Assembly (NCBI RefSeq): GCF_048403405.1
Contig: NZ_CP183129.1
Reading direction: 5' to 3' (one strand)
Source of the DNA: Escherichia coli
GTDB lineage: Bacteria; Pseudomonadota; Gammaproteobacteria; Enterobacterales; Enterobacteriaceae
DNA: 64,000 nt
A program made the position numbers. Within the stretch, counting starts at the first letter, position 1. Every line of letters starts with the position of its first letter. Below, piece after piece: positions 57,001 to 63,000 of this stretch.

Positions 57001-60000
57001 ATTGTCGCGAATGCCATCGTGGCGCGTTTCGTTAAAGATCCGACCGAACCGCGGTTTATCTGGCGTGCCGTCCCCATTCAACTGGTCGGCCTCGCGCTGT
57101 TGATTATCGGCAATCTGCTGTCGCCGCACGTCTGGCTGTGGTCGGTGCTGGGCACCAGTCTGTATGCTTTCGGGATTGGTTTGATTTTCCCGACCTTATT
57201 CCGCTTTACGCTGTTTTCCAATAACTTACCGAAAGGGACCGTCTCCGCATCGCTAAATATGGTGATCCTGATGGTGATGTCGGTCTCGGTCGAAATCGGC
57301 CGCTGGCTGTGGTTTAACGGCGGTCGCTTGCCGTTTCATCTATTAGCCGTTGTGGCGGGCGTTATCGTCGTTTTCACCCTGGCGGGATTGCTCAATCGCG
57401 TGCGCCAACATCAGGCTGCCGAGCTGGCGGAGGAGCGGTGATTTTTGCGCGATCCTACCGTCAGGCTCTATTCTTAACGTTATGAATAAACTCATTGAAC
57501 TCAGACGCGCCAAAATGTTGGCGCTCTCTTTACTGCTTATCGCCGCTGCTACCTTTGTCGTTACGCTGTTTTTGCCACCCAATTTTTGGGTGAGCGGCGT
57601 GAAGGCGATTGCTGAAGCGGCGATGGTCGGCGCACTGGCGGACTGGTTTGCGGTGGTGGCGCTGTTTCGCCGCGTGCCGATTCCGATCATTTCTCGTCAT
57701 ACGGCGATTATTCCGCGTAATAAAGACCGGATTGGCGAAAATCTCGGCCAGTTCGTGCAGGAAAAATTTCTCGATACCCAGTCTCTGGTGGCATTGATTC
57801 GACGTCACGAACCGGCGTTGTTGATTGGCAACTGGTTTAGTCAGCCGGAGAACGCCCGCCGCGTTGGTCAGCATCTGTTGCAGATCATGAGCGGTTTTCT
57901 TGAACTGACCGATGATGCGCGTATTCAGCGCCTGCTCAAGCGCGCAGTCCATCGGGCGATTGATAAGGTCGATCTCTCCGGCACCAGTGCGTTGATGCTG
58001 GAGAGTATGACCAAAAACGATCGTCATCAGGTGCTGCTCGATACACTGATCGCACAGTTGATCGCCCTTCTCCAGCGCGATAAATCGCGCAAGTTTATTG
58101 CCCAGCAGATTGTTCGCTGGCTGGAGAGTGAGCATCCACTGAAAGCCAAAATTCTCCCCACCGAATGGCTGGGCGAACATAGCGCGGAGTTGGTTTCTGA
58201 CGCGGTGAATTCTTTGCTTGATGATATTAGTCGCGATCGTGCACATCAGATCCGCCATGCGTTTGATCGCGCCACTTTTGCCCTGATCGACAAGTTGAAA
58301 AACGATCCTGAAATGGCAGCGCGAACTGATGCCGTAAAAAGCTATCTGAAAGAGGATGAAGCCTTTAACCGCTATCTCAGTGAATTGTGGGGGGATTTAC
58401 GGGAATGGCTGAAAGCGGATATCAACAGTGAAGATTCTCGTGTGAAAGAACGTATCGCACGAGCGGGTCAATGGTTTGGCGAAACGTTAATTGCCGATGA
58501 TGCCTTGCGGGCGTCGTTAAATGGTCATCTCGAACAAGCCGCGCACCGCGTCGCGCCAGAGTTTTCCGCATTCCTGACGCGCCATATCAGCGATACGGTA
58601 AAAAGCTGGGATGCGCGGGATATGTCGCGACAAATTGAGTTAAATATTGGCAAAGATCTGCAGTTTATCCGTGTCAACGGTACGCTGGTTGGCGGATGTA
58701 TTGGGCTGATTTTGTATTTGCTGTCGCAGCTCCCGGCTTTGTTCCCCCTCGGCAATTTTTAGAAATCCATGAAAAACTAAGTGGCTAACCGCGAGAGAGA
58801 TCAAATAAACCATACTAAAAGAATGGTAATAATGTGGCCTCTTTTCATTATCTCCCGTGTTACGGGGAAGGAAAATCATGTCACTTGTCACCGATCTACC
58901 CGCCATTTTCGATCAGTTCTCTGAAGCTCGCCAGAAAGGCTTTCTCACCGTCATGGATCTCAAGGAGCGCGGCATTCCGCTGGTTGGCACCTACTGCACC
59001 TTTATGCCGCAAGAGATCCCGATGGCAGCCGGTGCAGTTGTGGTTTCGCTCTGTTCCACCTCTGATGAAACCATTGAAGAAGCCGAGAAAGATCTGCCGC
59101 GCAACCTCTGCCCGCTGATTAAAAGCAGCTACGGCTTCGGCAAAACCGATAAATGCCCCTACTTCTACTTTTCTGATCTGGTGGTCGGTGAAACCACCTG
59201 CGACGGCAAAAAGAAAATGTATGAATACATGGCGGAGTTTAAGCCTGTTCATGTGATGCAGTTACCGAACAGCGTTAAGGACGATGCCTCGCGTGCATTG
59301 TGGAAAGCCGAGATGCTGCGCTTGCAAAAAACGGTAGAAGAACGTTTTGGGCACGAAATTAGCGAAGATGCTCTGCGCGATGCCATTGCGCTGAAAAACC
59401 GCGAACGTCGCGCACTGGCTAATTTTTATCATCTTGGGCAGTTAAATCCTCCGGCGCTTAGCGGCAGCGACATTCTGAAAGTGGTTTACGGCGCAACCTT
59501 CCGGTTCGATAAAGAGGCGTTGATCAATGAACTGGATGCAATGACCGCCCGCGTTCGTCAGCAGTGGGAAGAAGGCCAGCGACTGGACCCGCGTCCGCGC
59601 ATTTTAATCACCGGCTGCCCGATTGGCGGCGCAGCAGAAAAAGTGGTGCGCGCGATTGAAGAGAATGGCGGCTGGGTTGTCGGTTATGAAAACTGCACCG
59701 GGGCGAAAGCGACCGAGCAATGCGTGGCAGAAACGGGCGATGTCTACGACGCGCTGGCGGATAAATATCTGGCGATTGGCTGCTCCTGTGTTTCGCCGAA
59801 CGATCAGCGCCTGCAAATGCTCAGCCAGATGGTTGAAGAATATCAGGTCGATGGCGTAGTTGATGTGATTTTGCAGGCGTGCCATACCTACGCGGTGGAA
59901 TCGCTGGCGATTAAACGTCATGTGCGTCATCAGCACAACATTCCTTATATCGCTATTGAAACAGACTACTCCACCTCAGATATCGGGCAGCTCAGCACCC

Positions 60001-63000
60001 GTGTCGCGGCCTTTATTGAGATGCTGTAAGGAGTGGCAGTGGCATATTCGATTGGCATTGATTCCGGCTCAACCGCCACCAAAGGGATCTTACTGGCAGA
60101 CGGCGTGATTACGCGCCGTTTCCTCGTTCCAACACCCTTTCGCCCGGCAACAGCAATTACTGAAGCCTGGGAAACTCTGCGCGAAGGGTTAGAGACAACG
60201 CCGTTTCTGACGCTCACCGGCTACGGACGGCAACTGGTGGATTTTGCCGATAAACAGGTGACGGAAATCTCCTGTCACGGGCTGGGCGCACGGTTTCTTG
60301 CGCCAGCAACGCGCGCAGTAATCGACATCGGTGGTCAGGACAGCAAAGTGATTCAGCTTGATGATGACGGTAACCTGTGCGATTTCCTGATGAATGACAA
60401 ATGCGCGGCGGGCACCGGGCGTTTCCTGGAGGTGATCTCGCGCACGCTTGGCACCAGCGTCGAGCAACTCGACAGCATTACCGAAAATGTCACGCCGCAC
60501 GCGATCACGAGTATGTGTACGGTGTTTGCCGAATCAGAAGTGATCAGCCTGCGCTCAGCGGCCGTCGCGCCAGAAGCGATTCTCGCTGGAGTGATTAACG
60601 CGATGGCGCGGCGGAGTGCCAATTTCATTGCTCGTCTCTCCTGTGAAGCGCCGATTCTGTTTACTGGTGGCGTTAGTCATTGCCAGACGTTTGCCCGGAT
60701 GTTGGAAACTCACCTGGGTATGCCGGTAAATACCCATCCTGATGCGCAATTTGCTGGCGCAATTGGCGCGGCGGTAATTGGTCAACGAGTGAGGACACGC
60801 CGATGAAAGAGTTTTTATTTTTATTTCACTCCACGGTCGGCGTGATACAAACCCGCAAGGCGTTGCAGGCAGCGGGCATGACTTTTCGCGTCAGCGATAT
60901 TCCCCGTGATTTACGCGGCGGCTGCGGGTTATGCATTTGGCTGACCTGTCCGCCCGGCGAGGAAATACAATGGGTGATCCCTGGGCAGACCGAAGCGATA
61001 TATTGCCAGCAGGGCAGCGACTGGCAGTGCGTGGTGCATTACGATTCAGAAGCGTCAACCAGGCAATAAGACCTTTAAATATAACGCCCGGATATTTGGC
61101 TGCACATAATCCTGCATGAAGGAAGTTGTATTAAATATCTCGCCTGATGTGAAATATTTCCCATCCACAAAATGAGCGATTTTTGATAGCACCTTACTAT
61201 TTTACGTCTAAAATACAAAATACATTTTATTATACTTAAACCCATAATTATGCATAGAGAAATAAAATGATTACCGGGTGAGATAATGATAAAAGATAAG
61301 TTTCTGTGCGAAGCTTATCTTTACCCATCCCCCTGATTATTTTAGATTTAGAAGAACATTTCACAATTCAAGGATAAAAATATGGGCTCCCTAAACATAT
61401 ACCAGGATATTTTCCCAACACTCGGCATGTATTCGGGACTAAAATCTTGTCATAAAAAAAACAACCAACCATTTGATATTAACACGGAAATTGAAACCAT
61501 ACAAAAACAAATTAATTATGATATAAATCATTTGAGTGATGGTTTTATTAAGCGTGTACTGAATGTTTTTATTCACCTTATCTCTAATCCCGACAATCTC
61601 GAATTAACCTTAAATCGATATTCATCAACAACAGAACAAATCATCGCCAAAACCAAAAGAAATGGTTTAAATGAGTTTGAAATTAACGATCTAAAAATAA
61701 TATTTAATCGACAAGATGATAATGAAAGCGTATTAACTGTTAACCACAAAGATATAAGTCATAGTTGCAATGTTAAAACCGAGCAGCTGCAGCAGTTTAT
61801 TAAAATAATGGAACAAAAAGCGCAACTACCAATCTATATTGACAAGAACAATTTGAAAGAGAGTATTTTCTCTGTTTTGCAAAATGACCCACAGCACGTA
61901 GATAAAGAGCAATACCTTCCCTGTGATAAGTTTTTAACACATGCCTGCAAAAGTTCAAATTCATTTGAAGTGAAATTAGATGCCACTCATCAATATCAAC
62001 ATCTGAATAATTTCATGATTTCTTTTGACCCAGTAGAAAATCAATTAACAATACGGGATAACAATAACGAGACTGAAACTATCTCGTTGACAAACTTACA
62101 ATGGGAAAATGTGCTGCAATACTATAGAGAAAACCACCAGCAGCCAAATATAGCAGGATCACGAAATATCACGGATAATAGAGATAAAATTAAAAATACA
62201 ATATCCACCTCTGAAATTATTGAGTGCGCCTCTCCTGAAATAAGAAGTAGCGTCCTGAACGATCTTTATAGCATTGCTAATTTCCTCCCGGACAATAATC
62301 TGACCCCAAATGAGAGCTGGAAAAGGTTTTGTAACACATGCGAGCGCTTTTACGTTGCTCAGAAGAGTATCACTGGAGATAAGAGTGAACGTCTTACGCG
62401 AAAAGTCTCTATCTCTGATGCAGGAATTACAATGACCTTCACGATAGGTGATGTTGTCATCAATACTATTAGCACTGCTATCCCTGAAGATGAATCGGGT
62501 CAACGGTGTATCGAGGGGTTGAATTTAGCGGGAATGGATTTAACCGGCATAGACTTGTCTAATATGGTTCTAAGGAATGTCAATTTTAATGGCAGCATTC
62601 TTAGAAATGCGGATTTCTCCGGTACGATCTGTGAAGGCGTGGATTTTACCGATTGTGATCTCCGTTATGCAACCTTTATTGACGCCTCATTAGAAAAAAT
62701 CGATTTTCGTAAAGTTCGTCACTTGCTTAATATAAATTTTACAAATGCAAATCTACGGAACAGTAACTTCAGCGGAAAAGTTCTCACTGGCGTTAATTTT
62801 ACTGGAAGTGACCTTAGTAACGCTTATCTTGCACACATAGATTTCACAAAAGTGATTTTCTTTCCGTCATTAATTATTGGAGCAGTATTTGATTATTCCA
62901 ATCTATCAGAGAAAAATCTTTCAGACAAAGATCTTACTAATATTAGCTGCATGTATACCAATTTTACTAACGCTAATTTAACAAAATGCAAACTCTTAAA

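Follow-up and report, generated by a model that had tools for sequence, protein, structure and literature searches.

The yjiM-yjiL-ytiA Operon of Escherichia coli: A Predicted ATP-Driven Double-Cubane Reductase and Its Possible Link to Sulfur or Selenium Trafficking

What does an anaerobically induced, nitrogenase-like reductase of Escherichia coli reduce, and why are its genes followed by one for a small protein of a putative selenium/sulfur-carrier family? These questions are raised by yjiM, yjiL, and ytiA, which lie head to tail on the + strand of a 64,000-nucleotide stretch of contig NZ_CP183129.1 (RefSeq assembly GCF_048403405.1), hereafter the window. The operon is already annotated and named: it is in E. 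coli RefSeq, and YjiM is named in the literature on double-cubane cluster proteins (DCCPs). An earlier sequence-only reading of the window had taken the genes for a radical dehydratase-like module with a Cys-rich small protein, perhaps a sulfur or selenium carrier, and had assigned no substrate; the last point holds, as the DCCP literature names no physiological substrate for the family. What we add here are recurring DCCP-activase-DUF3343 modules that occur in several gene orders and are embedded in selenium-utilization operons. We propose that the operon encodes an FNR-induced, ATP-driven reductase whose target is a sulfur or selenium species held on Cys41 of YtiA, a reading to which we give a probability of roughly 0.45. 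Its first part, with YjiL as the ATPase, YjiM as the double-cubane acceptor, and a DUF3343 gene translationally coupled to them, is well supported.

Organization of the Locus

The three open reading frames (ORFs) were read from the window sequence and place yjiM at 58878..60029 (383 residues), yjiL at 60039..60806 (255 residues), and ytiA at 60803..61069 (88 residues), all on the + strand; the positions given by the sequence-only reading agree in every case with ORF reading, Pfam, and RefSeq. A longer ORF for yjiM is also open from a GTG at 58857, which differs from the annotated start at 58878, and yjiL begins with GTG as in RefSeq, with a second GTG candidate at 60033. The first two genes are separated by 9 nt. 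At the coupling junction between yjiL and ytiA (60791..60806, +), a GAGG in the yjiL 3′ end is followed, after an 8-nt spacer, by the ytiA ATG at 60803, which overlaps the yjiL TGA at 60804-60806 (ATGA) just as the earlier reading had described.

Pfam assigns YjiM to HGD-D (PF06050, E = 7e-122), YjiL to BcrAD_BadFG (PF01869, E = 4e-75), and residues 4-59 of YtiA to Se_S_carrier/DUF3343 (PF11823, E = 4.3e-13). In RefSeq, YjiM is a “double-cubane-cluster-containing anaerobic reductase,” YjiL a “putative 2-hydroxyacyl-CoA dehydratase activator YjiL,” and the product of the small gene, whose K-12 name is ytiA, a “DUF3343 domain-containing protein.”

YjiM and YjiL as a Predicted Double-Cubane Reductase and Its ATPase

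YjiM scores 530.9 bits on the NCBIfam model for DCCPs (NF040772; cut-off 350) over profile positions 1-372, and its best solved relative is the DCCP of Carboxydothermus hydrogenoformans (6ENO; E = 8e-75, ~40% identity), a member of the same family. In the alignment of the two proteins, C40, C59, C78, C93, C108, C273, C302, C304, and C335 of YjiM align to Cys in 6ENO, and all Cys of 6ENO within the aligned region (residues 62-421) are Cys in YjiM. The seven-Cys motif of DCCPs, which comprises six cluster ligands and a seventh nearby Cys, is present in YjiM by this alignment. The published seven-Cys spacing string, applied as a literal regular expression, gave no match in YjiM; because the aligned part of 6ENO shows the same C-X164-C spacing, this failure reflects a counting issue and not absence of the motif.

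The C. hydrogenoformans system, DCCP and its reductase DCCP-R (CHY_0487/0488; 6ENO, 7YYL), is likewise encoded by two adjacent genes, and YjiL resembles DCCP-R as an ASKHA-fold ATPase with two cluster Cys. YjiM differs from that DCCP (421 residues) in its length; since YjiM residue 26 aligns with DCCP residue 62, it is without the ~36-residue N-terminal segment that is said to close the substrate channel. The Jeoung-Dobbek review places YjiM among the class II DCCPs, in which the channel-closing N-terminal helices are missing and which possibly act on a larger substrate. The translationally coupled DUF3343 gene is a third component of the E. coli operon.

YjiL scores 361.4 bits on TIGR00241 (cut-off 125.4) and aligns with HadI and HgdC at E ~1e-52 and with DCCP-R (7YYL) at 5e-46. 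HadI and HgdC also have Cys at the positions of YjiL C122 (MNDKCAAGTGRF) and C160 (CTVFAESEVIS), in two conserved motifs; we take C127 and C166 of HgdC to be its [4Fe-4S] ligands and hence C122 and C160 of YjiL to be cluster ligands as well. For DCCP-R, the literature names C115/C152 as the cluster Cys.

The next-best structural relatives of YjiM by sequence are BzdN (E = 3e-19) and MbdN (E = 1e-17) of the class I benzoyl-coenzyme A (CoA) reductases (BzdNOPQ/MbdNOPQ). These enzymes also carry out an ATP-driven low-potential reduction; unlike the yjiML pair, however, they are assembled from four distinct subunits and act on an aromatic CoA ester, and YjiM reaches 79.8 bits on their family model against a cut-off of 453.8. 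Together, the comparisons give good support to YjiM as a DCCP-type reductase and not a 2-hydroxyacyl-CoA dehydratase. Judged by its sequence, the yjiML module is an ATP-driven reductase, to which the name dehydratase applies at the superfamily level only.

YtiA as the Conserved Partner of YjiML

Our sample of loci was built on the best 80 YjiM orthologues, with one genome per species, and comprises 25 gammaproteobacterial and 55 Firmicute loci. The order yjiM-yjiL-DUF3343 occurs in 25/25 of the gammaproteobacterial loci, which include Escherichia, Citrobacter, Klebsiella, Raoultella, Kosakonia, Cedecea, Hafnia, Morganella, and Aeromonas, and megablast against 5426 complete E. coli genomes finds the locus in 5386, the queried stretch being 100% identical to strain TUM14771; from these two counts, a chance arrangement of ORFs can be dismissed. 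The flanking genes vary between gammaproteobacterial genera (yjiN, mdtM, a sugar-type ABC transporter in Aeromonas, RluA), which argues that yjiM-yjiL-ytiA is itself the conserved unit, and they provide no clue to the substrate. Across the 26 yjiL-ytiA junctions (the 25 loci and the window), a 4-nt NTGA overlap occurs in 19 and a 1-nt overlap in 3, for a total of 22/26, and GAGG/GGAG is found upstream at overlapping junctions.

YjiM is an unusually well-conserved protein: identity is 86-90% among Enterobacteriaceae, and for the Aeromonas and Firmicute orthologues it is 79-81% and 58-70%, respectively. There is no Salmonella locus among the 80 orthologues, where many other Enterobacteriaceae stand at 86-90% identity, and the operon may be absent from that genus.

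Median ω (the ratio of nonsynonymous to synonymous divergence) in pairwise comparisons with the window is 0.057 for yjiM, 0.076 for yjiL, and 0.22 for ytiA; the sole comparison with unsaturated synonymous divergence yields 0.043, 0.074, and 0.24, respectively. An ω of ~0.2 indicates that ytiA is under purifying selection. The sequence-only reading had named a small ORF that is not conserved as the outcome that would count against it; selection on ytiA and its presence at every gammaproteobacterial locus speak otherwise. Its description of the small protein as Cys-rich did not survive, in that this is no property of the family: YtiA has five Cys, at 41, 44, 49, 68, and 76, and Cys41 alone (codon 60923..60925, +) is kept from enterics to Firmicutes, within the motif P-R-x-L-R-G-G-C-G-L. 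From Gammaproteobacteria to Firmicutes, alignments A2 and A3 show C41, G42, P34, and F8 to be conserved to 90% or more, and the C41-G42 pair, conserved to at least 90% in A2, is invariant in A3. A single conserved Cys in the DUF3343 family was also described in PMC5322559.

An AlphaFold2 model of YtiA, built on the family alignment (predicted local distance difference test score, pLDDT, 89.2; predicted template-modeling score, pTM, 0.80), predicts a β-α-β-β-α-β-β fold with Cys41 at the end of the β2-β3 loop. PDB sequence and NCBIfam searches gave no match to YtiA; fold searches returned generic ferredoxin-like, PII, CutA, and DUF2179 likeness only, too weak for transfer of function, and a search of AFDB50 returned DUF3343 proteins only. 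Apparent YjiL-YtiA fusions (P0249, P0253, P0270) and long Cys-rich matches were rejected as frameshifted assemblies or spurious. DUF3343 proteins such as YtiA resemble the TusA/YedF persulfide carriers as small α/β proteins of ~80 residues with one essential Cys and genes near desulfurases, and in the contexts that we sampled, DUF3343 often lies directly 3′ of a TusA/YedF gene. On the comparative evidence, we regard YtiA as a true partner of YjiML in Gammaproteobacteria.

Anaerobic Expression

PMC3688515 counts yjiML among the operons that FNR activates directly, the operon is induced in O157 as oxygen falls, and YjiM has been detected by proteomics. Because the operon is FNR-activated and its product is seen in proteomes, yjiM and yjiL are not remnants, an alternative that the sequence-only reading had itself raised as a danger to its proposal. 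The yjiN-yjiM intergenic region (58763..58877, +) contains the AAGGA Shine-Dalgarno sequence of yjiM and presumably the operon promoter; consensus scans of this region gave no convincing σ70 promoter or FNR box. A scan of 57300-61500 for σ70 promoters and terminators gave nothing beyond what shuffled sequence would give and found no terminator downstream of ytiA, and an Rfam scan and a repeat search of the locus returned nothing relevant. The nearest FNR-box-like site, TTTATCCGTGTCAA (58664-58677, two mismatches), lies inside the yjiN 3′ end, ~200 bp upstream of the yjiM start; with 56 matches to the FNR-box search in the whole window, this site is not distinguishable from chance. When the literature was searched for ytiA expression, the sole matches were unrelated genes that share the name.

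Genomic Context of YjiM and DUF3343 in Firmicutes

In the 55 Firmicute YjiM loci, yjiL is as a rule not followed by DUF3343. In 15 of these loci, one or more sulfur/selenium-trafficking genes lie within 8 kb. Over the same distance we counted a NifS/SclA-type desulfurase in 13 loci, DUF3343 in 10, long-form YedF in 5, and SelD in 4. Four examples are especially clear. In Tyzzerella (L060), selD-selA-selB-lysR-desulfurase-DUF3343-activase-YjiM-type DCCP follow one another on one strand with small gaps. A metagenomic contig (L093) carries selB, LysR_Sec_metab (NF040786, 419 bits), a TIGR01977 desulfurase, DUF3343, an activase, and a DCCP (488 bits) with 47% identity to YjiM. In Enterococcus moraviensis (L046), yjiM and yjiL are accompanied by a selenium-dependent xanthine dehydrogenase (TIGR03311, 1535 bits) and a MocA/YgfJ-like gene, as well as by the selenocysteine lyase SclA (715 bits), SelD, YedF, and DUF3343. 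Two Lachnospiraceae loci (L089, L090) combine a desulfurase, a long DCCP (>500 bits on NF040772), DUF3343, an activase, and Rrf2 with a PALP gene (PF00291, cysteine-synthase fold) and a Cys_Met_Meta_PP enzyme, and three Dorea loci (L068, L076, L081) have the same module.

The link was also seen from the side of DUF3343. Of eight DUF3343 contexts sampled by similarity alone, three adjoin a DCCP and an activase and seven adjoin a desulfurase, TusA/YedF, YedE, or SelA/B. YtiA shares its Pfam family and Cys-Gly motif with the DUF3343 proteins of selenium-utilization clusters (YedF, YedE, SclA/Sec lyase, SelD, SelA/B, LysR_Se), the two types align end to end, and in some genomes one DUF3343 gene is both inside a selenium cluster and beside the DCCP and activase genes; the gammaproteobacterial gene, in contrast, lies away from recognizable selenium or sulfur genes and is coupled to yjiL only. 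These findings agree with prior reports. According to the Haft preprint, NF040772 proteins are almost confined to SelD-encoding genomes (955/970), and in the literature, DUF3343 is among the genes most often overlapping selD and is linked to YedF, selenocysteine lyase, and an activase. PMC5322559 proposed DUF3343 as a selenium/sulfur chaperone, and its STRING table puts “activase” and HGD subunits among the DUF3343 partners. The guess of the sequence-only reading that the small gene encodes a sulfur/selenium carrier thus matches the Pfam name and gains independent support from genomic context, although the carrier role itself is deduced. The co-occurrence with SelD, the link between DUF3343 and selenium, and the gene strings found here are three lines that meet in one hypothesis, testable in E. 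coli.

Three further features of these loci concern the same genes. First, a PatB C-S lyase gene lies within 8 kb in 6/55 Firmicute YjiM loci, and a PatB-family C-S lyase (TIGR04350, 447 bits) lies no more than ~300 bp from the YjiM orthologue in four of the five loci L035, L037, L044, L048, and L060; this adjacency is a possible alternative clue to a substrate derived from sulfur amino acids. Second, the Dorea loci together with L089 and L090 have two DCCP subfamilies side by side: a long DCCP (424-461 residues) in a desulfurase-DCCP-DUF3343-activase string, and a short, YjiM-type DCCP that is divergently transcribed and is without an activase gene of its own, which suggests that one activase may serve both. 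Third, Acetoanaerobium pronyense (L033, 11196-12488, −) has a gene in which DUF3343 is fused N-terminally to the [FeFe]-hydrogenase maturase HydE (TIGR03956, 303 bits); it belongs to a hydG-hydE-hydF cluster and is convergent with the yjiL orthologue, ~70 bp away. To our knowledge, such a fusion has not been described; it is a hint that the DUF3343 domain may hand a cargo bound to its thiol to Fe-S enzymes.

Proposed Mechanism and Alternatives

We propose the following sequence of events. In its first, well-supported part, YjiL would act as an ATPase homodimer with a [4Fe-4S] cluster between the subunits, in which ATP hydrolysis drives a low-potential electron into YjiM; YjiM would be a homodimer with an [8Fe-9S] double-cubane cluster that performs a difficult reduction. 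In the second, more tentative part, YtiA would be a small ferredoxin-like carrier with a persulfide, perselenide, or related adduct on Cys41, loaded with S(0) or Se(0) by a cysteine desulfurase or selenocysteine lyase, and YjiML would then release the chalcogen as, or keep it in, its fully reduced form. The most plausible product would be selenide for SelD and hence for anaerobic selenoproteins. In this specific form, with YjiML-YtiA as an ATP-driven reductase of persulfide, perselenide, or Se(0) that turns the chalcogen loaded on Cys41 into selenide for SelD under anaerobiosis, the proposal is speculative and we consider it doubtful. Compared with the donors ordinarily available in cells, the Se(0)/HSe− couple has a much lower potential; if it is indeed so low, this would give a rationale for an ATP-driven reductase. 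If true, the proposal would be the first to give a double-cubane cluster protein a physiological function and would fill a gap in the pathway by which bacteria activate selenium; it would explain the source of fully reduced selenium for selenophosphate synthesis and why gut anaerobes keep an ATP-driven, nitrogenase-like reductase. If false, the locus stays an ordinary annotated operon.

Several observations weigh against a role in sulfur or selenium chemistry. Thiols usually reduce persulfides and perselenides without ATP, so that it is not evident why an ATP-driven enzyme should be required. About 73% (40/55) of the Firmicute YjiM loci are without a sulfur/selenium gene within 8 kb, and 45/55 are without DUF3343 over that distance, from which it follows that DUF3343 is not an obligatory subunit; the loci are, moreover, phylogenetically related, so that fewer independent events lie behind the counts than these suggest. 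The 64-kb E. coli window contains no desulfurase, selD, yedE/F, or selA/B, the fold searches yielded no functional analogue of YtiA, and ytiA evolves four to five times faster than yjiM. For YjiM, the Jeoung-Dobbek review prefers as substrate a CoA ester or another organic molecule of large size.

That preference defines the rival that survives best, although we hold it, too, to be a rather unlikely account: the substrate of YjiML has nothing to do with sulfur/selenium trafficking and is either organic or a small inorganic compound (a CoA ester, for example, or a refractory fermentation intermediate), YtiA serves as an accessory or adaptor, and the selenium neighborhoods merely mirror operon shuffling and the anaerobic way of life that these bacteria have in common. 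For class II DCCPs, in which the channel-closing N-terminal helices are missing, the review suggests a CoA ester or something larger, and this fits the account, as do the 40 loci without a nearby sulfur/selenium gene, and the PatB C-S lyase and amidohydrolase neighbors could indicate substrates derived from amino acids; Haft, for his part, rates pathway adjacency likelier than direct selenium chemistry. However, an organic substrate leaves unexplained why DUF3343 stands between or beside the DCCP and activase genes in three gene orders and why YjiM-type genes lie inside selD-selA-selB-lysR strings with minimal gaps, and no CoA-transferase or ligase gene is conserved beside the module.

A less probable view makes YtiA, together with the desulfurase at loci that have one, a maturation factor and not a carrier of substrate; it would supply sulfide or, as Haft speculated, selenide for the double-cubane cluster, for example for its bridging μ2-S. 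The desulfurase gene directly before DCCP-DUF3343-activase in Lachnospiraceae points in this direction; the fusion of DUF3343 to HydE, an H-cluster maturase, indicates that the domain can serve metallocluster biogenesis, and Haft names a selenium-bridged cluster as a formal possibility. On the other hand, the C. hydrogenoformans DCCP assembled its cluster in E. coli according to the review (where a cognate DUF3343 may have been co-expressed), many DUF3343 genes occur with YedF, YedE, or SelA/B and no DCCP nearby, and most YjiM orthologues have no DUF3343 in their vicinity.

A radical 2-hydroxyacyl-CoA dehydratase with a one-shot activator is very improbable. In its favor, older annotations use the name dehydratase. 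The fold of both components is common to the superfamily that includes HadBC/HadI and HgdAB/HgdC, with the same Pfam families and an ATPase that is 45-50% similar over its full length, and the sequence of YjiL is slightly closer to HadI/HgdC than to DCCP-R. Those dehydratases, however, are α/β heterodimers with one [4Fe-4S] cluster per subunit and CoA thioester substrates, for which catalytic activation suffices, whereas YjiM is encoded by a single gene and has the Cys set of DCCP, not the three-Cys set of a dehydratase subunit. The models for hydroxyisocaproyl-CoA dehydratase subunits have cut-offs of 700 (HadC) and 750 (HadB); YjiM, with 94.7 and 19.1 bits, respectively, stays far below both. 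A phmmer search with YjiM against all six-frame ORFs of the 64-kb window, which holds one HGD-D and one BcrAD_BadFG ORF, finds yjiM alone and no second HGD-D subunit; the arrangement is that of a stand-alone catalytic subunit with an adjacent reductase gene, and no CoA-transferase lies nearby. The “radical dehydratase-like module” of the sequence-only reading is therefore right as to superfamily only (PF06050, PF01869) and not the best label for the enzyme, given that YjiM reaches the DCCP cut-off, falls short of those for HadB and HadC, and has no HGD-D partner.

Finally, that ytiA is a non-functional or spurious ORF kept merely by its overlap with the operon 3′ end is scarcely credible: it is short and fast-evolving (median identity to orthologues in other gammaproteobacterial genera ~60%, vs. 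88% for YjiM), its C terminus differs among E. coli alleles, and the literature search found no direct evidence of translation, but its frame, start overlap, Shine-Dalgarno-like motif, and P-x-x-x-x-x-x-C-G motif are kept from Escherichia to Aeromonas and Morganella, and the low ω, the significant Pfam match, and the confident predicted fold all speak for a functional protein.

Allele Divergence and Neighboring Genes

Megablast similarity to K-12-like and most other E. coli genomes ends at 61013. Relative to the K-12 allele, ytiA shows dense substitutions from ~60986, with the frame kept, and encodes 88 residues instead of 85, with a different C terminus; this divergent 3′ end (60986..61069, +) borders a low-GC stretch (61070-63700) with a GC content of 31-36%, compared with ~53% for the operon, and looks like a recombination boundary tied to the neighboring island. 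Between ytiA and a yjiK homologue lies a gene for a 688-residue pentapeptide-repeat protein (61382-63448, +), which is named “pentapeptide repeat-containing protein” in RefSeq and the type III secretion system effector EspX6 in an O157-like strain and which K-12 is without; its C terminus contains KQASDS(I/T)EKQA-like tandem repeats. On the other side of the operon, at 54786-55742 (−), the gene for an Rpn-family recombination-promoting nuclease (an rpnD homologue) is intact and encodes 318 residues; in the K-12-like comparison genome, the annotation gives rpnD as a pseudogene, interrupted by an internal stop.

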